A stretch of DNA of 26,652 nucleotides from Chiloscyllium plagiosum (Eukaryota). The DNA lies in the NCBI RefSeq assembly GCF_004010195.1, contig NC_057718.1:84603446-84630097 (forward strand), in the 5' to 3' direction. Below, piece after piece: positions 3,458 through 26,292 of this stretch. Position 1 is the first letter of the stretch. Each line of letters starts with the position of its first letter. Both the position numbers and the translations under genes were made by a program. Below the pieces are notes generated by a model. That model was given only the letters and a program-made list of their open reading frames with translations, was not told the origin of the DNA and ran no database searches.

Positions 3458-3675
3458 TTTGAGGAGAAAGTGAGGTCTGCAGATGCTGGAGATCAGAGCT
3501 GAAAATGTGTTGCTGGAAAAGCACAGCAGGTCAGGCAGCATCCAGGGAACAGGAGAATCGGCGTTTCAGGCATAAGCCCTTCTTCCTGAAGAAGGGCTTA
3601 TGCCCGAAACGTCGATTCTCCTGTTCCCTGGATGCTGCCTGACCTGCTGTGCTTTTCCAGCAACACATTTTCAGC
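3458..3675. mobile_element. Non-coding fold-back PLE (family A) terminal-repeat insertion with 14-bp TSD
   Basis: Inverted arms 3497-3585 and 3588-3676 (89 bp, 2 mismatches, 2-nt spacer). Direct repeat TAATATCAGTAGTC at 3444-3457 and 3676-3689. Confidence 0.9.
3583..3617 (+). ncRNA. Minimal type I hammerhead ribozyme motif (family A), intact core
   Basis: CUGAAGA (3586-3592), A, GGGC-UUAU-GCCC stem II, GAAAC (3606-3610), GUC triplet (3611-3613); only a short UC/GA helix I. Confidence 0.85.
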
Positions 3676-5046
3676 TAATATCAGTAGTCACTGACAGATT
3701 CAGAGTGCCCTGTGCATAAATAGAAACAGTGCCCTATTGTAGTTGGAAATTGTTAAGCCCATGCCAAAACTGGAAGCAATTAGAAGTTAATTGATTAACA
3801 ATGTTTAAAATATTGTGAACAGTGCATCAGGGAGTGCTTAGTGTGAAACATTTTAAAATGTTCTGGTTTGGTCATGAGCCTTAACAATTTTGGCAAAATA
3901 CTAAATGGCTTTTTGTCATTAGAACGAAGGCTGCATGTGACAGTAAGATGCTCTGACATAACTTAGAAGTAGATCAGAATTGGTGCAGCTGATGTACATG
4001 AGCATGGCTAAGAAATTGAATTGTTTGCATCAGTATAAAAACATCTCTCTACTTGAACCTTTTTTTTAAAGTACAGAATTTTATCTGTGATTTTGGTACT
4101 TTTGAGCTTGTAGGAAGACAAAACCATTCAACAACTAATGCATATTTTGAAGATTTATTTTAAATGATGTTTGCATTTATGCAAATTGTTAACTTGTTTA
4201 ATGTGTATGTTTTGCCTTTGGAGTGGATATTCTTTTGGAAGAAATTGGTCTGAGGTTAGAGTATTTCTAGCAGGGAAGCTAAGTACTTTAGTCTTGTACA
4301 AGTGTAAGAGGTTTACAATTACCTCTGCCATTTTTGTGTACCAAAACAATAGAGATATTTATTGAAACTGGATTTTTAAAAAAAGAGTAGGGAATAGAGT
4401 ACAATGTTTGTCTGCTGGGTACCTTCCACCACTCAGAACAAGTTTCTTCGTGTCCAGTCTTCATTCTATTTCTTCTAAGTTACTTTCCTCTAGAATAGAA
4501 ATATCTGCTTAGTTTGCAGGGAAATTGTAATCCTGAAGGAAATGTGAATTGCCTGATTTCATCAGCAACTTGTAGGTTAGTACTGATATTAAGTTATTGA
4601 CTTTGACCTTGTTTTTGAGCTTGTGTTGGCATGTAAATTGCTGATACAGATGCCTTGAAACTTGCAGATAAGTACAGTTGCATTATTTTTGTTTTAACAG
4701 TTGATTAGCTGAACAATTTATACATAACCTTTTTGTTTAAATCCTAGTTGAATAGGAACCACTTTGCATTTCAGTCTGCTGACCGTTAATTACTGTGCCT
4801 GACTAGGGTTTTTAGGGGTAGAACAAGTTTGTCTGTTTTGGGTTAGAGGGAATATTTTGAAGATAAAAATGTTTGATTCATGGTATGAGCTGAGTACAGT
4901 GGATTTCAGTTTGGCTTCAATTTTTGTGACATGGTTCTGTTTTAGGAAAGAAAAAGCTTATCATGGTAAAGTAGATCACATCTCATTGCGTGTGTAATTT
5001 TTGTTTTGGCATAGGCTAAATTATATATTATTTTGGTTTTCAATAG

Positions 5047-5294
5047 ATGAATATGATGTGCAGGAGGTTGCAATGAATTCAGATGATGTACCCATGAAAG
5101 AAGCAAGACCAATACAGATAGTGTTGGCACATGAAGATAATCATCATTTTGATCTCGATGAAGAATCCTTGGAGCGAATTCTATTGCAAGAACATGTTCG
5201 GGACTTGAATGTTGTGGTTGTCTCTGTGGCAGGAGCATTTCGTAAAGGCAAATCCTTTTTGTTGGACTTCATGTTGCGTTACATGTACAATCAG
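5047..5294 (+). CDS. ATL2: Atlastin GTPase internal coding exon (exon 2-like, P-loop)
   Basis: Encodes ...[62 protein letters not shown], with the atlastin G1 motif [26 protein letters not shown] is ATL2-like rather than ATL1-like. Acceptor ttttcaatag ends at 5046, donor CAG/gtaaga at 5295; 248 nt, phase 1 to phase 0. Confidence 0.92.
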
Positions 5295-5439
5295 GTAAGA
5301 GATTACATGCTGTCAGTTTCTTTTGCATGAGACTTCAATTGTTTTGGAATGTGCATGTTGAAGTATTTTCATTTGCTTAACGATTGTTAATGAGATTGTC
5401 ACTGGAGTGCATTGATCAGTTAGCCATTTTCAAGCATTG

Positions 5440-6639: not shown

Positions 6640-7455
6640 CAGTACCCTCCACCTCATCCTACTTATCACCTGTGCTTCCGCCCTTGTCCCTTCCCATCAT
6701 CCTCAACAGTGTGATTGGGTCTCCCTTGGCCTCAACTTTGCATCACACCAGCCTCTAGTGGATCATTCTCCACCATTTCAGACAACTCCGGTAGAGCTCC
6801 AGCCATCACCAAACAGATGTTCCCCTCACTCCTGTTTGTATTTTGCAGGAATTGTTCCTTCCAGGATACCCTAATTCATTCATTGACCACTGATACAACA
6901 TCCCCTTCCCACATAACTGCTGAAGTGCAATCCCTGCCCCTTTACCTACTTACTGTTTGTTATCCAAAGGCTTAAATAGTCTGTTCCAGTAAAGCAGTAT
7001 TTCACCTGTACCACCTCCAATATTGTATTCGCTGCACCCAATGTGGCCTACTCTACACTGGAGAAACCAAACCAGACTGGGTGATGGCTTTGCAGAACAT
7101 CTCCAATCTGTGTGCAAGTGTGACCCTGACCATGCCATAGCCAGCCATTTTAATACAGATTCTGGATCAGTGGTGCTGGAAGAGCACAGCAATTCAGGCA
7201 GCATCCAACGAGCTCGTCGGATGCTGCCTGAATTGCTGTGCTCTTCCAGCACCACTGATCCAGAATCTGGTTTCCAATATCTGCAGTCATTGTTTTTACC
7301 TCATTTTAATACAGAGTCTTGCTTGTGTGCCCACTTGTCTGTCCTCTGTTTGCTGTAGTGTTCCAGTGAATCACAGTACAAAACTCTCATCTTCAGACTA
7401 GGCACTTTACAACCTTCTGGACTTAATATTGAGTTCAGCACCTTCAAAATGTGAA
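6640..7455 (+). mobile_element. Decayed Penelope-like element, GIY-YIG endonuclease region
   Basis: 7021-7105 reads YCIRCTQCGLLYTGETK..RLGDGFAEHL across a frameshift (PLE GIY-YIG with CxxC). Interrupted by the 7160-7301 insertion. Confidence 0.8.
7160..7301. mobile_element. Spacer-less palindromic PLE (family A) terminal-repeat insertion with 14-bp TSD
   Basis: Arms 7156-7212 and 7213-7269 (57 bp, 1 mismatch) centred on GAG|CTC. CATTTTAATACAGA is repeated at 7146-7159 and 7302-7315. Confidence 0.9.
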
Positions 7456-7519: not shown

Positions 7520-8670
7520 ATGCTCTGCCACCATGCATCCCCCTGCCTCCACCTCTCTACTGGAACTGTCTGTGCTTTCAAATCGAAGAGGCTTTCCAAT
7601 CCCAAGCATCCCAGATGTCCACCTATTTCGAACAATGTACTTTTTCTACTCCCCTGTCATCCAGACAGCCCTCCACTGCACCACCTCCATTTGCTGCTGC
7701 ACTGCTCTCTACTGCCTCTCCAAACGCAATACAGAGTCCTCCTTGTCCTCACCCTCCATCCTGCGCCAGTCTCTGCATCCAATACATCATCCTTGAACAC
7801 TTCTGCTAACTCCAACTTTATCCCATCGCCAAGAACATCATCTTCCTCTCTCCAAACGTCTGTCTTTCACATGTACCCTTTCCTTCACCATCCTTTGGTT
7901 TGTGCCACTCTACCCACCAACACCCCACCCCCGGACCTGCAGTACCTTCCCCTGCAAATGTAAAAGATGCAAACTCTGCTGGCAAGCCACCCTGCTCACC
8001 TCCATCCAGGGCCCCAATCTGTCCTTCCAGGTAAGACAGAGGTTCACCTGCCTCTTTCCCAACCTAGGTTACTGTATCTGGTGCTCCTGATGTGGTCTTT
8101 ACATCATTGAGACCAAACATAAACTAGGGGCATGTTTTACCAAACATCTCTGCTGAACCCACAAGGGCCAACCTGACCTCGAGTCACCACCCATTTCAAT
8201 TCCCCTTCCCATTCACTCTTTGACATGACCATGCATGACCTCCATTGCCACAGTGAATCAGACTGCAGATTGGGGGAGCAACACCTCATTTTCTGTCTGG
8301 GCAGCCGACAGCCCAGAAGACTCAACATTTGAGTTCTCCAGTATCAAATAATCTCTCTTCCCATTCCCCCCCCCTCCCCAAATTCCTGTGACAAACCCTT
8401 CCTTCCAACTATCAAAGGATTAATTCCTCCTATTGATCAACCAGGCTGTACCCTCTAATTGTGTTCCCCTATCACTACCTCACCATTTGCCCTACCCCCC
8501 AAAAAATCTGTGTTCCCCTTACCCCCACCACAAGACCTGAAGAAGGATCATACCCGAAACGTTGATTTGTTTACCACCTAACGCTGCCTGGCTTGTTGAT
8601 TCCAAAGTAGACAAACAGCCTCCTGTTTGTCTACTTTGGATTCGAGCATTTGCAGTTTTTTTCGCCTCTA
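7520..8670 (+). mobile_element. Decayed Penelope-like element, 3' half with terminal repeat
   Basis: TFPCKCKRCKLC...QVRQRFTC...NLGYCIWCS*CG (zinc knuckle plus GIY-YIG); the terminal repeat carries an HHR motif at 8537. Confidence 0.8.
8534..8567 (+). ncRNA. Hammerhead ribozyme motif, core intact, stem II with one mismatch
   Basis: CUGAAGA (8537-8543), A, GGAU-CAU-ACCC, GAAAC (8556-8560), GUU. Confidence 0.65.
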
Positions 8671-9350: not shown

Positions 9351-9873
9351 CGCAACGGAACGAGGACATGCCACAACCCAAAGGACTAGCCACACTACCA
9401 TACATCAGGAGCATTTCAGAACTGACAGCCAGACTACTGCGACCACTAGGACTTATAACAGCACACAAACCAACAGCAACCCTCCAGACAACAACTCACC
9501 AGAACGAAGGACCCGATACCCAGCATGAGCAAAACTAATGTAGTGTACAAAATCCCATGCAAGGACTGCACAAAACACTATATAGTACAAACAGGAAGAC
9601 AGCTAACGATCCGCATCCATGAACATCAACTCGCCACGAAACGCCATGACCAGCTATCCTTAGTAGCCACACACGCAGACGACAAGCAACATGAATTCGA
9701 CTGGGACAAATAAACCAAATCATCCGCCGACATTTCCGCCACCTCCAAACAGACCCCACCACCAGGGATATATTTCCCTCCCCACCCCTGTCCGCCTTCC
9801 GCAAAGACCATTCCCTCCGTGACTACCTGGTCAGGTCCACGCCCTCCTACGACCCACCCTCCCATCCTGGCAC

Positions 9874-10263
9874 NNNNNNNNNNNNNNNNNNNNNNNNNNN
9901 NNNNNNNNNNNNNNNNNNNNNNNNNNNNNNNNNNNNNNNNNNNNNNNNNNNNNNNNNNNNNNNNNNNNNNNNNNNNNNNNNNNNNNNNNNNNNNNNNNNN
10001 NNNNNNNNNNNNNNNNNNNNNNNNNNNNNNNNNNNNNNNNNNNNNNNNNNNNNNNNNNNNNNNNNNNNNNNNNNNNNNNNNNNNNNNNNNNNNNNNNNNN
10101 NNNNNNNNNNNNNNNNNNNNNNNNNNNNNNNNNNNNNNNNNNNNNNNNNNNNNNNNNNNNNNNNNNNNNNNNNNNNNNNNNNNNNNNNNNNNNNNNNNNN
10201 NNNNNNNNNNNNNNNNNNNNNNNNNNNNNNNNNNNNNNNNNNNNNNNNNNNNNNNNNNNNNNN
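9874..10263. other. Assembly gap (390 N)
   Basis: Run of n characters. Confidence 1.
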
Positions 10264-10283
10264 ACTTCAGGCTCTCTGCCTTT

Positions 10284-10318
10284 GTTCTGATGAAGGGCTT
10301 TTGCCCGAAACGTTGATT
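10284..10318 (+). ncRNA. Hammerhead ribozyme motif (family A), intact core
   Basis: CUGAUGA (10287-10293), A, GGGC-UUUU-GCCC, GAAAC (10307-10311), GUU; helix I weak. Confidence 0.8.
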
Positions 10319-10635
10319 TTGCCTGTCCTCGGATGCTGCCTGAATTGCTGTGCTCTTCCAGCACCACTGATCCAGAATCTGGTTTCCAGCATCTGCAGTC
10401 ATTGTTTTTACCTCGTTGATTACTACCATTATAGGGCAAGCCAAAGAAAGAACAGCCAGGGAATTCCTAGAAGCATGGCACTCATCCACAAACTCCATCA
10501 ACAAACACATCGACCTGGACCCAATATACCGGCCACTACAGCGGACAGCTGAAACTGACAACCGGAAGCGGCAGGGACAGGCCACTATAAATGCTGGAGG
10601 AAACACCACAGAAGCGCTTCACAGGAGGCTCCCAA

Positions 10636-10675
10636 GCACTGAGGATGTCACCTAGACAGGGGACGCAACGTTTGC
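10636..10675 (+). ncRNA. Hammerhead motif (family B), probably inactivated
   Basis: GCA-CUGAGGA-U-GUCACC-UAGACA-GGGGAC-GCAAC-GUU-UGC; GAAA is mutated to GCAA. Confidence 0.7.
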
Positions 10676-10756
10676 AACAAAAATGTCCAGCTCAGCGAAC
10701 AGAACCACAACAACGAGCACCCGAGCTACAAATCTTCACCCAAACTTTGAAGGTGC

Positions 10757-12486: not shown

Positions 12487-12557
12487 GCATTAGTGGTTCA
12501 GTGGTAAAATGGTACCCTGCCATGTGGCAGGCTTGGGTTTGATTCTCAGCAAATGCA
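12487..12557 (+). pseudogene. tRNA-Gly(GCC) pseudogene
   Basis: 71 nt collinear with the remembered vertebrate tRNA-Gly-GCC, about 15 substitutions. Anticodon loop CTGCCA is retained, B box GGTTCGA has become GGTTTGA, anticodon stem is broken, no CCA, and a T-run follows about 10 nt downstream. Confidence 0.85.
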
Positions 12558-12701
12558 TAGGACTCTTTTCCTTGCCTCCTTGGGGCTTGCTTGTGGTACA
12601 GGGTAGTAGGAGAAAGTGAGTACTGCAAATGCTGGAGATCAGAGTTGAGAGTTTGGTGCTGGAAAAGCATAGCAGTTCAGGCAGCTTGCAAGGAGCAGGA
12701 G

Positions 12702-12737
12702 AATTGACATTTCAGGCATAAGCCCTTCGTCAGGAAT
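12702..12737 (-). ncRNA. Hammerhead motif (family A), partly degenerate
   Basis: Minus strand AUUC-CUGACGA-A-GGGC-UUAU-GCCU-GAAAU-GUC-AAUU. Confidence 0.65.
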
Positions 12738-14292
12738 GAAGCTTGTGGGCCAGGGTGCTAAGAGATAAATGGGAGGGAGTGGGGTTGGGGGGGAAAGGAG
12801 CTGAGAATGCAATAGGTAGATGAAGGTGATAGGGTGGAGTGGGACAGATGGCAAAGACAATGGATAGGTTAAGAGGGCAGTGCTGAGAAGAGAAGCCCAC
12901 ATCTGGTGCAATGGATACAGTAGATGACATTTGTGGAGATGCAGATAAATTTGTTGGATGTGGAAGGATCCTTTGGGGCCTGAGATGGAGATGAGAGGGG
13001 AGGTTTGGGTGCAAGTTTTGCACTCCCTTTGGTGGCAGGGGAAAATGCCAGGAGTGGGCTGGAGGGGGTGTGGATCTGATAAGGTGTCGTAGAGGGAATG
13101 GTCTTTCTGGAATGCTGATGGGAGTGGAGAAGGAAATATATCCCTTATCTGTTTGCAGATGGTGGAAGTGGCAGAGGATGATGCGATGTGTACAGATATA
13201 GGTGAGGACTGGGGGCATCTGTTCTTGTTGCATTGAGTGATGGGGTTCAAGGGAGAAGATGGGCTGGAGGGCATCGTCAAACACATGGGAGGGGTAATTG
13301 CAGTCGTTGAAGAATGAGGCCATCTGGCATTTTCTTTGGTGGAACTGGTCCTCCTGGGAACAGATGAGATATCGGAATTGGGAATAAGGGATGGAGTTTT
13401 TACAGGAGGCAGGATGGGAAGAGGTGTAGTCCAGGTAGCTGTGGGAGTCCATGGGTTTGTAGTAGATGTCTGTGGTTAATTGGTCGCTGGGAGATAGATC
13501 CAGGAAGGGGAGGGAGGTGTCCAAGATGGTTCAGGTGAATTTGAGGTCAGGGTGAAAGGTGTTGGTGGAGTTGATGAACTATTGTGGGAGCATGAAGTAG
13601 CGCTGATAGTCGTTGATGTAGTGAAGGAAAAGGTGGAGGATGGTGACAGTGTAGCTGCGGGAGATGGATTGTTTCATGTACCTGACAAAGAGGCAGGCAT
13701 AACTGCAGCCCATGTGGCTGCCATGGCCACCCCTTTGGTTTGGAGGCAGTGGGAGTATTGGAAGGAGAATTTAAGGGTGAGGACCAGTTCAGCCAAATGG
13801 GTGAAGGTGTTAGTGGAAGGGTGCTTGTTGGGACGGCGTGAAAGGAAAGAAACGGAGGGCTTGGAGGCCTTTGTCATGGCGGATAGATGTGTACAGGGAC
13901 TGGATGTCCATGGTGAAGATAAGTCTTTCTTTGAGGTGGTGAAGGGCATGGGTGGTGTCCCAAACGTAGGTGGAGAGTTCCTGGACTAAGGGAGACAGGA
14001 CGGTGTCAAGGTACGCAGGGATGGGTTCAGTGGGACAGGAGCAGGCTGCGACAGCGGTTGGCCAGGGAAATCAGGCTTGCAAATCTACCGTAGGAGGTAG
14101 TATTGGGCAGTGTGGGGTTGCGGGCAGTGATTTAGGAGGCTGTGGGTAGGAGGTCCCCAGAGGTGATGATGAGGTTTTGGATGGTCTGGGAGATCGTTTG
14201 CTGATGGGCGGTGAGGTCATGGTCGATGGGGCGGTAGGAGGAATGTGAGAGTGGTGCCTAGTTTCAGCAGTGTAGAGGTTGGTTCTCTCTCT

Positions 14293-14497: not shown

Positions 14498-15838
14498 GTG
14501 GAGGCAGATCCAGTGGATGTAGCGTACCTGGACTTTCAGAAAGCCTTTGATAAAGTCCCACATAGGGGGAGGTTAGTGAGCAAAATTAGGGTGAATGGTA
14601 TTGGGGGCAAAGTACTGACTTGGATTGAAAATTGGTTGGCTGACAGGAAACAAAGTAGTGATAAACTGCTCCCTTTCGGAATGGCAGGCGGTGACCAGTG
14701 GGGTACCCCAGGGATCAGTGCTGGGACTGCAGCTTTTTACAATATATATTAATGATATAGAAGATGGTATTAATAGTAACATTAGCAAATTTGCTGATGA
14801 TACAAAGCTGGGTGGCAGTGTGAAATGTGACGGGTGCTCCGGTTTCCTCCCACAGTCCAAAGATGTGCAGGATCAGGTGAATTGGCCATACTAAATTGCC
14901 CATAGTGTTAGGTAAGGGGTAAATGTAGGGGTATGGGTGGGTTTCGCTTCGGCGGGTCGGTGTGGACTTGTTGGGCCGAAGGGCCTGTTTCCACACTGTA
15001 ATCTAATCTAATCTAATCTAATAATGTGGATAAATGTATGGTTATCCACTTTGGTAGCAAGAACAGGAAGGCAGATTACTACCTAAACGGAGTCATGTTA
15101 GGTAAAGGGGCAGTACAAAGAGATCTGGGTGTTCTTGTACACCAGTCAATGAAGGCAAGCATGCAGGTACAGCAGGTAGTGAAGAAGGCTAATAGCATGC
15201 TGGCCTTCATAACAAGAGGGATTGAGTGTAGAAGCAAAGAGGTTCTTCTGCAGCTATACAGGGCCCTGGTGAGACCTCACCTGGAATATTGTGTGCAGTT
15301 CTGGTCTCCAAATTTGAGGAAAGACATTCTGGCTGTTGAGGGAGTGCAGCGTAGGTTCACGAGGTCAATTCCTGGAATGGCGGGACTATCTTATGTCGAA
15401 AGATTGGAGCGACTGAGCTTGTATACCCTTGGGTTTAGAAGACTGAGAGGGAATCTGATTGAGACTTATAAGATTATTAAAAGGATTGGACACTCTCGAG
15501 GCAGGAAACATGTTTCCGCTGATGGGCGAGTCCCAAACCAGAGGACACAGCTTAAAAATAAGGGGTAGGCCATTTAGGACAGAGATGAGGAGAAACTTCT
15601 TCACCCAGAGAGTGGTGGGTGTGTGGAATGCTCTGCCCCAGAAGGCAGTGGAGGCCCAGTCTCTGGATTCGTTTAAGAAAGAGTTGGATAGAGCTCTCAA
15701 AGGTAGTGGAATCCAGGGTTATGGGGATAAGGCAGGAACAGGATACTGATTGAGGATGATCAGCCATGATCATAATGAATGGTGGTGCAGGCTCGAAGGG
15801 CAGAATGGCCTACTCCTGCACCTATTGTCTATTGTATG
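14498..15838 (+). mobile_element. CR1/HER1-like LINE, 5'-truncated, relatively young
   Basis: [68 protein letters not shown]; 3' tail CCTATTGTCTATTGT. Confidence 0.95.
14831..15022 (+). mobile_element. HE1-like SINE (V-SINE type), 5'-truncated, inside the CR1
   Basis: GGGTGCTCCGGTTTCCTCCCACAGTCCAAAGATGTGCAGG (V-domain) ... GGGCCGAAGGGCCTGTTTCCACACTGT followed by an (AATCT)n tail. Confidence 0.9.
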
Positions 15839-17042
15839 TTGCAAGGGTGGGCGGTTGGAGTGGGTAAGGGTGTTGGAGGGGGTAGTATCCTTGGACTGAG
15901 GGGCCTCTGTTCAAGATCAACCTGTTCCAGGGATGTGTATAACATCTCTGAACAGATTGATTAGGAAAATAGGTTAAATTAATAACTGCCAACTGTACAA
16001 CCATTGGGGGAGATTACTATAGATGAGCTGGAGCAGAGGGTGTGTACACAAATGGAGATTTTGGCAGCAAGTAACTGTGGAGTGGAGTGGTGACCAGTTG
16101 CATCTGACCAATTCCTCCTGTCTGTCCACAGCTGTGTGATTGTTCAACTGCTTGGGAGCCATCTTGTGGGTGTGAATGTTCAGGCAGAAAGTGTTGGACC
16201 TCAAAAGGCAGGAACTGTCAATTTCTTTATCCCTCCAGTAATAACATCTAAAGCTTGCAGGAAACCAGTTTGTTTTCCCTCATCAGTTACTGTAATCTGT
16301 GGCACTGTAAGGAGGTCAGAGACCTTTATTAAAAAAAGGTGTGAACCATTCACCCTGTGTCCTGTATGCAAGTGAATGTGTGCCTGGAGAAAAGATCCAG
16401 AAGCAACATTCTAATCAGCAAAGGAATTATCACGGCAAACCCTGTAATGAGGGATCTCCGAACAGCTTTCCCAGTATTTCCCCCTGACCGTGACACCCAC
16501 CTTTTTTCCTCTGTGTAGAGAATGTGTTTATAAAGAGCTTCGTTTTGACAAGTAGTTATGTTGATAGGTCATTACTGTTTCTGTACTTAAGAAAAACCTA
16601 TTTGTAATAAATAGTCAATGTTCCATGCTTTTTTGACAATTTAAATATATTTTAACTTTGTTTTTGGTAATAGTGGCTTGATCTTAAGCATACTAAAGTG
16701 AAGTGTGTAACACTAAATTTCATGTTTTTTTTAAAAACATTTATAGTTACGTGTATCATGAAGCTAAACTAATCAAAATGACAAATTGTTTCAAATGAAT
16801 GTTTGGGAGACCACAAGAATACCCAAGGATATATGAATGTTGATTTTCTTCTGATTTAAGATAGACAGTAATCACTAGTTCTGTACCTGAGCCAGAGTCA
16901 GATACTGGTTTTTCTTTCTGCTTAAAATCTGTTTGTGAGCCATGACTCTTGTATCAAAACAGAATGATCAAAGTTTGTGTAAAGATTTGTAGCTCGGGTA
17001 CTCCTTGTTGTGGTTCTGTTCACCGAGCTGGGAATTTGTGTT

Positions 17043-17082
17043 GCAGACGTTTTGTCCCCTGTCTAGGTGACATCCTCGGTGC
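17043..17082 (-). ncRNA. Hammerhead motif (family B), inactivated
   Basis: Minus strand GCA-CCGAGGA...GGGGAC-AAAAC-GUC-UGC has two core substitutions. Confidence 0.65.
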
Positions 17083-17412
17083 TTGGGAGCCTCCTGTGAA
17101 GCGCTTCTGTGATCTTTCCTCCGGCATTTGTAGTGATTTGAATCTGCCACTTCTGGTTGTCAGTTCCAGCTGTCCGCTGCAGTGGCCGGTATATTGAATT
17201 CGACTGGGACAACAACACTATTATAGGACAAGCCAAACCGAGAACAGCCAGGAAATTCCTAGAGGCATGGCACTCATCCACAGATTCAATCAATAAGCAC
17301 ATATACCGGACACTGCAACGGACAGCTGGAACTGACAACCGGAAGCGGCAGATTCAAACCACGACAAATGCTGGAGGAAAGATCACAGAAGCGCTTCACA
17401 GGAGGCTCCCAA

Positions 17413-17452
17413 GCACTGAGGATGTCACCTAGACAGGGGACGAAACGTCTGC
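17413..17452 (+). ncRNA. Minimal type I hammerhead ribozyme motif (family B), intact core
   Basis: Helix I GCA/UGC; CUGAGGA (17416-17422); stem II GUCACC-UAGACA-GGGGAC (one mismatch); GAAAC (17442-17446); GUC (17447-17449). Confidence 0.85.
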
Positions 17453-19006
17453 AACACAAGTTCCCAGCTTGGCGAACAGAACCACAACAAAAACAGAATG
17501 ATATATCAACCAGTTGAATAAACTATTTGATTCTTGACATGTTGGTGTATTGACTTACTTACAATATAATATTGTTTCAGAGGAATCTTTGATTTAGATT
17601 TGCCTTGTGCTGCTCAGGAACATTAGGTTTTAGACACTGAAGGGCTGAGCTGTGCAAACAACTGATTTACGTGATGTGCCATCATTTAAGAGGTTTAGGG
17701 ATTTACTACCACAATTGTATTAGTTATAAAATAATAGAGCCACTCAACTTGATATATTTTTAAGTTAGTTCAGTGTGACTGTGCAGGACAAATCATTTTG
17801 AAGTACCATCCTTTTATACATTTTTGTCAAAAATGCAATATCTTAAAAATTGTAATGCTGAAATACCAATAATTAAAAGCCAAACTGAGATACTTTTTAA
17901 GAGGTTCTGTCCAACAAAACTATTTTAATGCATGCAAATATACATTTTGACGAGGGTATTTGATCACAACATTTTAAAAGGTTTTCAAAAGTACAGCTAA
18001 TTGTCATTCAAATGTTAAAAAGATTTTAAAAAGCAAAACATGCCCTTCAATTTTGCTCTGTTCACTAACTATTATTTATTTTAAAGTAATTTGTTTAAAT
18101 AAAATGGTAGTCAAGATTTAGACCATCGTTCATGCTGGCACTTAATATGCTACCTTGGTTAGCTACACTTGACTGCATAGTTTACTGACCACCAACATCC
18201 ATGTAAAATTATAACATGGGTAGAACATAATGGCCTTTGAGCCTGCTCTGCCATTCATTTAAAGTCTTGGAATTTATACTACTTCCTGTTTCATTCTTTT
18301 ATGAATGTCTGTCTCTGAACACAGTATTCAAATGTTTTTCACCATTTAAAAAACTTGCACTCAATTAGTAAGAATAGAAAATTAAAAACCTTCCTTGCAT
18401 ATACAGCATTCTACAGGGAGTCCATTTTAAATTGTTAAAGTAAGCTCTCTTAAAACTATTTTTTACCTTGTAGTTGCTTCTCACTTTAAAGTTGGTGCTT
18501 TATTTCCTTTTTGTCCTTATTTTGAATGCCACTTTCAATGTTAACATCCTTTTTACTACTTGTTGCCTCATGTCACTTGTCAGCAGCAAGGCCTTTTGAT
18601 TCTGCTAGAGTTGGGACTGTTTGACCTTTATTCGCAATCTATTTTTAAAAAATAACTGAGCTGTGGTATAAACTTGGATATAAACTTTGTCTTTTTATTT
18701 CTCTATGCATCCATGTGAGTTTAGTGTAGCTGAGAAGCCATTTTTTTAAACTGTACCACTGATACATTAGCTGAGGAATTTGTACTGTACTATCTTTTGT
18801 AAAAAAAAACTTTACAAGCAGAAGGCCTGCTTTCTCTGGAATTTTCCATGTTTTGCAAGTTACTTTAGCTACGAATACATGCTGTATATAGAATGGTTTT
18901 TCAATACTTACATTTGCTTTTCTGGACAAAAATTGCTTTTGGGAACCGAACTTAGCTTTAACATTGAATTTCACAGGAAACCATGCTTCATTTAAAATTG
19001 TTTCAT

Positions 19007-19296
19007 CTAAATTAGATTGGATTCCCTACAGTATGGAAACAGGCCCTTCAGTCCAACAAGTCCACACCGACCCTCCAAAGAGTAGCCACCCATTCCCCTA
19101 CCCTGACTAATGCACCTAACACTATGGGCAATTTAGTATGGCCAATTCACCTAACCTGCACATCTTTGGATTGTGGAGAAAACCCTCAGACACTGAGAAT
19201 GTGCAAACTCCATGCACAGTCACCTGAGGCCGGAATCTAATCCGGGTGCCTGGCGCTGTGAGGCAGCAGAGCTAACCACTGATCCACTGTGCTGCT
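19007..19296 (-). mobile_element. HE1-like SINE, near full length
   Basis: Reverse complement of the 14831-15022 SINE plus a tRNA-derived head (minus strand CAGTGGTTAGC...GCTGCCTCACAGCGCCAGG). Confidence 0.88.
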
Positions 19297-23330: not shown

Positions 23331-23515
23331 GCGGTGGGTTAAGTGAGTATACAAAGCCACCAATTGGACTGCATTTCACTGCCCATAGCAACATTTGGTT
23401 TATAATGTGCTATGATTTAGCTGATGTTATTACTGGGCATCAGATCCCAGATTGAAATCCAGATGGATATATCATGATTTGGGTTTAAAAAGATAGGGTC
23501 TCGCTGAGATGAAAC

Positions 23516-24020
23516 ATTGTGTGCAGTTTTGGTCGCCATACTATAGGAAGGATGTGGAGGCACTGGAATAGGTGCAGAGGAGGTTTACCAGGATGTTGCC
23601 TGGTATGGTAGGAAGATTGTATGAGGAAAGACTGAGGCACTTGGGGCTGTTTTCATTGGAGAAAAGAAGGTTTAGGGGTGACTTGATAGAGGTGTACAAG
23701 ATGATTAGGGGTTTAGATAGGGTTGACCATGAGAACCTTTTTCCACGTATGGAGTCGGCTATTACGAGGGGGGCGTAGCTTTAAATCAAGGGGTGGTAGG
23801 TATAGGACAGATGTTAGGGGTAGATTCTTTACTCAGCGAGTCGTGAGTTCATGGAATGCCCTGCCAGTAGCAGTGGTGGACTCTCCCTCTTTATGGGCAT
23901 TTAAGCGGGCATTGGATAGGCATATGGTGGATAGTTGGCTAGTGTAGGTTAGGTGGGCTTAGATCGGCGCAACATCGAGGGCCAAAGGGCCTGTACTGCG
24001 CTGTATTTTTCTATGTTCTA
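23516..24020 (+). mobile_element. CR1 LINE 3' fragment
   Basis: CVQFWSPYYRKDVEALE*VQRRFTRMLPGM...RFFTQRVVSSWNALP; (TTCTATG) tail. Confidence 0.92.
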
Positions 24021-24741: not shown

Positions 24742-25820
24742 AACTATATCAGTGATTTGGATGAGAATATACAAGGCATGATTAGTAAGTTTGCTGATGA
24801 CACTAAAATAGACAGTATTGTGGATAGTGAGAAAGGTTATCAGAAATTCCAGCAGGAGCTTGATCAGCTGGGGAAGTGGGCCGAGAAATGACAAATGGAG
24901 TTTAATATAGATGAGTGTGAGGTCTTGCATTTTGGAAAGTCAAATCAAGGTAGAATTTTCATGGTAAATGGTAGTGCCTTCAGGAGTGTCGTGGAGTAGA
25001 GTGATCTTTTGAGTTTAGGTTCATGATTCTCTGAAGTGGAGTCACAGGTAGACAAGGCAGTGAAGAAGGCCTTTGACACACTGGCCTTCATCCGTTGGGG
25101 CATTGAGTATACAAGTTGGAAGGTTATGTTGCAGTTATACAGGACGTTGGTGAGTCCGCACTCGGAGCATTATGATCACTTTTGGTCACCTTGCTATAAG
25201 AAGCATGTTATTAAGCTGGAAAAAAGCAGAAGAAATTTGCAAGGATATTGCCTGAACTCAATGGTGTGAATTATGGGGAGAGGTTGGACAACTAGACTTT
25301 TTTTTTCTTCAGAGCTTAGGACACTGAGTGGGGAACCTTTTTATAGAAGTGTATAAGATCATGAGACATGGATAGGGTGAATGCACTCAGTCTTTTTCCC
25401 AGGCTTGGGGTATTGAGGACTAGAGTGCCGCAGTTTAAGGTTAGAGGGGAAAGAATAAAAGGGAACCTAAAGGGCATTTTTTTTAAAAACCATTTGGTAT
25501 GCATATGGAATGAGTTGCCAGTGTAAGTGGTTGAGGTGGATACATTAACATTTAAAAGGCATTGGACAAATACATGGATAGGAAAGGAATAGAGGATATG
25601 GGAGTAGAGAGTATGGGTGCTGGAACAGCACATCAGGTGAGGCAGCATAGAGGAGCAGGAGAATCGATGTTTTGGGCATAAGCCCTTTATCAAGAATCAT
25701 ATGGGCCAAGTGCAGAGGATATGCACTTCGATGGATTTGGGTGAAGTGTAGAGAAATGGGGTTAACGTGGACAGACATTTTGGTTGGCATGGACCCATTT
25801 GGGCCAAAGGGTACCGTCTC
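24742..25820 (+). mobile_element. CR1 LINE 3' fragment, decayed
   Basis: YISDLDENIQGMISKFADDTKI, LYRTLVSPHSEHYDHFWSP; several stops. Confidence 0.9.
25603..25698 (-). mobile_element. Short PLE family A terminal-repeat insertion with degenerate HHR, inside the CR1 3' end
   Basis: Minus strand AUUC-UUGAUAA-A-GGGC-UUAU-GCCC-AAAAC-AUC; ATATGGG is duplicated at 25596-25602 and 25699-25705. Confidence 0.75.
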
Positions 25821-26024
25821 CGTTTTAGGACTCAAACTCTCACTTTTGAGAGTACTTTACATCCTTGCTGTTTGGTTGAAAGGCGTTGTGGTCTGTCTTG
25901 CAAGAATTTTCTCTACAGTCATCATTGTCCTCTGAGGGAGAGCTTATGAGCCCAAATGTGACCTTTGCAACCCCCATTGAGAGTTGGTAACCCACAGTTT
26001 TGGATCTGCTGTGTATAGGTTTAA

Positions 26025-26292
26025 CATCCTAGGACAGGCTAAACAGAGACACGCACAGGAATTCTTAGAGGTCTGGCATTCAAACCAGAACTCCGTCAAT
26101 AAACACATTGATAAATGGGGTTCAAATTAATTTCTCAGAAAAAGAACCGGAAATTATATCATCCACCCTAAGAGATCAAGACTCACTAATAGAAAGCAGC
26201 TGCCACCGAAAGCTTACTAATGATGTTACCTATCATGGTGATGGAACGTCTGAAAACAAACCTGCCAGCTCAGTGAGCAAACTTACAACCTG
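26025..26292 (+). mobile_element. Older family B-related PLE 3' fragment with degenerate HHR (26214-26253)
   Basis: ILGQAKQRHAQEFLEVWHSNQNSVNKHI; UUA-CUAAUGA-U-GUUACC-UAUCAU-GGUGAU-GGAAC-GUC-UGA. Confidence 0.75.

Follow-up and report, generated by a model that had tools for sequence, protein, structure and literature searches.

A high-copy Penelope/Poseidon-type element in the shark Chiloscyllium plagiosum carries at its 3' end a minimal hammerhead motif overlapping two reading frames

Does a stretch of only 40 nucleotides in the genome of Chiloscyllium plagiosum represent a genuine hammerhead ribozyme, and what might it do for the element that carries it? The motif lies at positions 17413-17452 (+) of the window, by which we mean the whole 26,652-nucleotide stretch that was analysed. 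A sequence-only reading had reported it as a second, sequence-distinct hammerhead, carried by a PLE family termed B and showing compensatory variation in its helices; the sequence and coordinates that it gave are correct when read directly. The class of minimal type I hammerheads in metazoan PLEs is defined by the core CUGANGA ... GAAA-N-N-U-H, a helix I of 3-5 bp, and a helix II of 4-8 bp, and the motif has the core, the extra base, the G10.1-C11.1 pair, both helices, and the palindrome of this class. Helix I pairs 17413-15 with 17450-52 (3 bp); core positions C3-A9 follow at 17416-22, N7 being G. The extra base, U17423, precedes helix II (17424-17441; strands 17424-29 and 17436-41, 6-nt loop), which opens with G10.1-C11.1 (G17424-C17441). 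Five of its six base pairs are formed, the sole mismatch being A·G at 17427/17438, and U17430-A17435 can extend it by one further pair. The GAAAC-GU-C strand occupies 17442-49 and provides G12-A15.1 (17442-45), C15.2-G16.2, U16.1, and C17 at 17449, after which cleavage is predicted. There is no helix III: positions 15.2-16.2 belong to the palindrome ACGU at 17445-48.

A chance match to the hammerhead consensus would sit easily with the folding energy of the 40-mer, which is ordinary compared with shuffles (z -0.36), and with the Rfam models, which give the motif no score. However, folding z-scores are uninformative for a minimal hammerhead motif, and the Rfam models return no hammerhead anywhere in the window at E<=1, missing the copies of a second family, A, as well; neither approach suits a motif of this kind. 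While the window contains 11 occurrences of the bare core pattern, with 2.8 expected, a descriptor that combines core and pairing finds just two matches (17413 and the family A copy at 10287), where 200 shuffles gave a mean of 0.01 and a maximum of 1. Furthermore, the motif lies directly behind an endonuclease, as it does in relatives, and PLE hammerheads that are nearly identical to it appear in the available parts of a published survey (PMC4209133). Chance origin was rejected on the descriptor shuffles together with the placement among distant relatives; its probability is negligible.

The immediate surroundings of the motif identify the type of element that it terminates. It lies within the right arm (17197-17489, +) of an insertion, a 5'-truncated Poseidon-type PLE end that consists of a GIY-YIG C-terminus, the hammerhead, and the opening 68 nt of the ORF that follows. 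The left arm (16969-17196, -) repeats this end in inverted orientation and extends 37 nt further on its 3' side (the 'tail'), and 13-bp target-site duplications lie on either side, at 16956-16968 and 17490-17502. Positions 16969-17489 are thus a single insertion in which the inverted arm (17196 to 16969) is joined to the direct arm, the two differing at 12 of 189 bp. An independent origin of the hammerhead copies at 17043 and 17413 was considered and rejected, as they are the two arms of one insertion with a shared 13-bp duplication. Truncation at the 5' end, an adjoining inverted copy, and a tail of 30-40 bp are hallmarks of PLEs, and tails of this length are described in the accessible text of two studies (PMC8557442, PMC11167929). 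Counted from the ATG in the motif, family B has its 3' ends at +68 and +104/105, and each of three public DNA runs shows loose ends at 17490, in agreement with a B 3' end. The frame upstream of the motif is 85-93% identical, in the best 7 of 12 matches, to PLE proteins of Chiloscyllium punctatum and Hemiscyllium ocellatum.

Other pieces of the same and of related elements are present in the window. A second insertion of the same subfamily, B1, spans 9351-10748 (+), contains thumb, GIY-YIG, and pLTR, and is flanked by an 8-bp duplication (9343-50/10749-56). Nested in its endonuclease region is a family A (Neptune-type) element at about 9709-10420, within which 390 N bases lie at about 9875-10264; the B frame resumes beyond it. 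The decayed end of a sister subfamily, B2, is found at 26020-26290 (+) and matches Stegostoma-type proteins (P0008/P0015). Target duplications were sought around the nested family A element and the B2 end, and none was found. Family A is also represented by a hammerhead with a 4-bp helix II at 10284-10313 (+), used here for comparison, and by a remnant at 12600-14052 (-) with RT, a Cys linker at 13037, the start of GIY-YIG, and a hammerhead at 12733. The B pieces of the window match the thumb and EN of protein P0001; RVT_1 is detected in P0001 and P0011, and a weak GIY-YIG in P0011. Subfamily B2 (P0008, P0015) is about 65% identical to P0001, and in a tree of 37 rows B1 and B2 form one clade (98/97).

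That A and B are separate PLE lineages, as had been proposed from the letters of the sequence, is borne out by RT fragments of family A that are 24-25% identical to B-type proteins, and by the Cys linker, present in the family A remnant at 13037 (-) and in 0 of 6 B-type proteins (P0001, P0004, P0015, P0011, P0036, P0037). A zinc-finger-like Cys linker between RT and EN marks Neptune and Nematis in the definition given in the available text of PMC8557442, and on that definition A is therefore of Neptune type and B of Penelope/Poseidon type; these clade names rest on the linker, the tree having neither named Repbase references nor a family A row. Both lineages have an identical core and ACGU palindrome behind the GIY-YIG ORF and differ in their helices, as was also claimed, with a helix II of 4 bp in A and 6-7 bp in B. 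Non-LTR retrozymes are a further relative: like B they derive from PLE pLTRs and have type I hammerheads, and they are reported in one chondrichthyan (Li, Clavereau & Pollet 2026, 10.64898/2026.07.22.740005, as far as its available text goes). In contrast to the head-to-tail, non-coding tandems described there, B copies are dispersed, inverted or single, and contain ORF remnants; retrozyme identity was rejected since no B copy in the window forms a head-to-tail tandem.

Apart from these elements, several features of the window were observed in passing. An atlastin exon lies at about 5076-5300 (+), with a GBP domain and E about 1e-25 to atlastin structures; a short-motif scan found no further atlastin exons in the window. 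Other fold-back (palindromic) insertions are present at 3497-3676, 7156-7269, and 8598-8643, the first two made of family A end sequence. A tRNA-like sequence at 12487-12557 (+) scores 31 bits with Rfam and is probably a decayed tRNA or the head of a SINE. Repeated fragments of another retroelement family, which we take to be LINE-like, occur at 14841-15654, 19008-19184, 23510-23879, and 25045-25190.

With four family B copies available in the window, the claim of compensatory helix variation can be examined directly. Only the copy at 17413 has an intact core. The B1 copy at 10636-10675 (+) has A13>C, with U at position 17, and the copy on the inverted arm (17043-17082, -) has U4>C and G12>A, so that the core mutations reported for both are present. 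The B2 copy at 26214-26253 (+) shares 27 of 40 bases with 17413; its helices pair, as was stated, but it has G5>A and A13>G and is therefore not an intact second ribozyme, a status that was rejected on these two core changes. The A·G mismatch in helix II is common to all three close copies. Among the nine helix pairs compared across the four copies, one has changed on both sides (outer helix I, G-C to U-A), three show one-sided changes to G·U or U·G by single transitions, one has gone from A·G to A-U, and four are invariant. This level of two-sided change was matched in 119 of 500 shuffles, and the window thus gives no ground for the compensation that had been claimed. The wobble changes could be decay by deamination or real variants; a published fluke motif has a helix II 3' strand identical to that of 26214 (PMC4209133, in the part available). 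The predicted energy of helix II is -4.2 kcal/mol at 17413, weaker than at 26214 (-5.4) and in family A (-6.5).

Variation within the subfamily was sampled in contigs of three public DNA-type runs (three organisms), compared with 17197-17520 at 80% likeness, a threshold that captures B1 only, B2 being too distant. The three runs hold 39488, 11021, and 15207 records that fit the B1 end, and B1 is therefore very abundant. Places with G>T in each run (1, 2, and 1) are wholly explained by 17363 and 17420; at 17438 this change stays below 2% in all three runs, and since it nowhere reaches 2% or more the A·G mismatch is fixed in B1. Among the 40 of 58 variant rows listed for 17197-17520, CpG decay affects 17441/42 and 17446/47 of the motif (6-17%), which also has five variants outside CpG sites; their frequencies in the three runs are, in turn, 1/3/18% for 17413 G>A, 2/15/0.5% for 17420 G>T, 1/9/0.1% for 17427 A>G, 6/7/0.1% for 17433 A>C, and 21/21/28% for 17449 C>T. 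Four of the five lie at positions that hammerheads tolerate (N7, H17, loop II, and the mismatch); this amounts to 4 of 11 tolerant positions against 1 of 25 others (Fisher p 0.023, with classes that were set after inspection of the data). The same 40 rows contain no two-sided helix change within B1, although a change that compensates 17413 could lie in the other 18.

The bases of the motif are also codons in two overlapping frames, which the sequence-only reading had overlooked. The likely start codon of the element ORF is formed by A9-U-G10.1 (17422-17424, +), and the stop codon (TAG) of the upstream GIY-YIG frame by the first three bases of loop II (17430-17432, +). In a set of 214 proteins, the start frame taken from 10645 matches residues 1-41 of its two closest full-length relatives, P0037 (E 0.002) and P0036 (E 0.022), and these two are the only matches when it is compared by BLAST with 60 proteins of at least 780 aa. 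Shark proteins of both subfamilies (P0001, P0003, P0007, P0008) end at the same residues as the TAG frame at 17430. In B1 and B2 the upstream frame runs into loop II, which gives an 11-nt overlap of start and stop and leaves no UTR. Within the start frame, the variants at 17427 and 17449 do not change the amino acid and 17438 falls on the second base of its codon, and coding therefore confounds the argument from conservation. The N7 variant (17420), located 5' of the ATG, alters an amino acid of the upstream frame, which agrees better with a ribozyme.

In this respect, the B1 hammerhead might be vestigial, inherited but no longer cleaving, its sequence held by the coding of an N- and a C-terminus and by recent common descent. 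Such a state would account for the fixed A·G mismatch, whose G falls on the second base of a codon of that ORF, for the synonymous nature of the variants at 17427 and 17449, and for the competing folds that natural flanks produce. It is also compatible with what the available texts report for other PLEs: the Poseidon element PAc inserts without cleavage (PMC11167929), and Naiad elements thrive without hammerheads (PMC8557442). Nevertheless, C3-G8 lies 5' of the start codon and is kept although the upstream peptide there differs between B1 and B2, and its only common change is the amino-acid-altering one at N7. The swap of G-C for U-A in helix I divides B1 from B2, and the read-through of P0015 echoes the B2 side. 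We regard loss of function as unlikely on this balance.

Evidence from more distant relatives was sought in metagenomes. A first scan gave 67 candidate stretches, 0 of them confirmed, and viral contigs gave 0 matches to the family B pattern and no confirmed relative. A profile search of metagenomes recovered 80 loci at 31-41% identity, among which family B itself was absent. The full descriptor finds 20 sense and 7 antisense motifs in these 80 loci, compared with 0 in five shuffles. Antisense hammerheads were seen at L032:193 and 1825 (-) and in L013, L048, L063, L064, and L065, several of them upstream of the ORF match; they are consistent with inverted pLTRs, and one has a longer palindromic helix III. 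To avoid circularity, pairing was then assessed after a search for the core only, near the endonuclease end, in the 44 loci that have this end and sequence behind it, which gave 20 sense matches in 20 of the 44 loci and 0 in antisense. In the 16 distinct motifs, which include several closely related rows and are uncorrected for kinship, pairing is kept at I.1 in 15, I.2 in 15, II.2 in 16, II.4 in 15, II.5 in 11, and 15.2-16.2 in 14, whereas the shuffle means in the same order are 6.5, 8.6, 9.1, 7.6, 4.9, and 7.8. Up to five pair types occur at the kept pairs; I.4, II.1, II.3, and II.6 were not above shuffles in these motifs. The covariation supports maintenance of a hammerhead fold in a clade of distant relatives, rather than in B1 in particular. 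The proposal that two PLE lineages each keep the ribozyme fold therefore stands in part: A and B are separate, both have the hammerhead, and distant relatives of B covary, but the copies in the window do not bear it out. The overlap with start and stop codons is not general in these relatives, where an ATG at A9-N-G10.1 is present in only 1 of 16 motifs and stops range from -225 to +42 from C3, in frames some of which are possibly broken.

Several published systems show how such a motif may work. Minimal hammerheads are reported in Xena, Poseidon, and Neptune elements of fish, with more than one covarying family in a single genome as the published rule (Cervera & De la Pena 2014, PMC4209133, in the parts available), and a second, sequence-distinct hammerhead is thus no surprise. 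Like 17413, those of metazoan PLE pLTRs are of type I, with a palindrome and no further helix III, the extra base, G10.1-C11.1, and a short helix I; unlike those seen in the available parts of that paper, helix II of B1 contains an A·G mismatch that is fixed. Two Clonorchis sinensis motifs (Fig. S3) have the helix I of B1 and a loop II of 6 nt, and in one of them helix II combines the 5' strand of B1 with the 3' strand of 26214. Table S1 and Fig. S3 of the survey list no shark, and our literature search, made mostly outside subscription papers, found nothing on shark PLE hammerheads or on a stop codon in loop II of PLE hammerheads. A Poseidon element that has been tested is PAc, from Anolis carolinensis (Frangieh et al. 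2024, PMC11167929, in its available text), which cleaves only with protein and whose insertion does not require cleavage. In PAc, as in B, the start codon sits where stem II begins, the cut site follows shortly after, N7 is G, and two 3' end points lie 30-40 nt apart; PAc differs in having a 126-nt UTR before the start, where shark B1 and B2 have none, and its cleavage was assayed experimentally, while the shark B hammerhead is known from sequence.

Taken together, we consider it quite probable that 17413 is a minimal type I hammerhead ending a high-copy Penelope/Poseidon-type PLE, that cleavage by this hammerhead of the element's own tandem RNA is weak and assisted, and that this particular copy is inert. 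The anatomy, the link to GIY-YIG, the inverted-arm insertion with its target duplication, the sequence fixed across the family, and the covariation in distant relatives are its observed footing. When units are transcribed in tandem, the hammerhead would contain both the stop codon of the upstream unit and the start codon of the unit that follows, and cleavage is expected to be weak, with help from the element's protein or from a second copy, judging from the available parts of PMC4209133 and PMC11167929. Cleavage after 17449 would deprive the downstream unit of its AUG, and would therefore shorten multimers and shut translation down. Reverse transcription would take uncut RNA as its template, with a start 68 or about 105 nt past the AUG, and if uncut RNA is copied the contiguity of all four B copies across the cut site is expected.

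The copy at 17413 would be a passive 5'-truncated insertion that, once transcribed, is predicted to be paired along its whole length with the antisense arm. The predicted fold of 16968-17490 places all 40 motif bases in pairs with the other arm, so that a 189-bp hairpin would trap the copy and leave it inert. Folding of 17400-17470, with flanks of 13-18 nt, gives helix II a predicted probability below 1%. A ViennaRNA homodimer fold showed no hammerhead dimer form, in a model that is blind to core contacts. Activity in general is also put in doubt by the retrozyme study, in which 8 of 9 frog dimers failed to cleave (10.64898/2026.07.22.740005).

An active dimer could produce a circular monomer RNA as the true transposition intermediate, with this or similar loci cutting host transcripts, as suggested by a palindrome at 15.1-16.1 that permits an intermolecular helix III, by complementarity at 15.2-16.2 that is kept in 14 of the 16 distant motifs, and by a model proposed in the available text of PMC4209133; religated circles, too, are compatible with the contiguity of copies across this site. 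This is very improbable, however. Activity of PLE hammerheads is reported as low and in dimers only (PMC4209133), PAc used unprocessed RNA with 0 reads ending at the cut site (PMC11167929), both as far as the available texts go, and the second copy at this locus is antisense, core-mutated, and predicted to sequester the intact 17413. A broader picture, which we hold to be doubtful, sees shark family B as a UTR-less Penelope whose 40-nt hammerhead is read in three ways (ribozyme, ORF end, and start of the next ORF): cleavage would be a start-codon switch, religation would yield a seamless all-coding RNA circle, the A·G mismatch would tune dependence on protein, and the lineage would have moved between sharks and their flatworm parasites.

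The last of these elements has a starting point in the protein matches. The best named full-length matches outside sharks are from cestodes and flukes (44-55% identity). In the 37-row tree the sharks join a clade that contains flukes (99/94), and both fall within a larger clade that also holds cestodes and a snake (100/100), a relatedness that rests on unevenly sampled databases. Horizontal transfer of B between shark hosts and flatworm parasites is possible on these sequence comparisons. The proteins compared include P0013, P0036, and P0032-P0049, and the Clonorchis hammerheads in Fig. S3 of PMC4209133 are nearly identical to that of B. Neptune and Poseidon span vertebrate classes in the available text of 10.64898/2026.07.22.740005. 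Literature searches found nothing on horizontal transfer of Penelope or Poseidon in sharks, and nothing by title on Penelope transfer between flatworms and fish. A separate observation concerns predicted isoforms of shark host genes (MAP3K7, NT5DC1, EYA3-like) that end in B endonuclease sequence (P0002, P0003, P0008, P0024, P0026, P0030); these are intronic PLE ends annotated as last exons, whether real or artefact.

The hammerhead at 17413 is therefore a real feature of an established kind, PLE hammerheads in several families per genome being already known. It also provides a warning, as coding confounds the conservation seen in motifs of this sort. With start codon, stop codon, and ribozyme overlapping, a helix II mismatch fixed in a successful family, and a huge copy number, family B is a handy test case for the role of hammerheads in PLEs.
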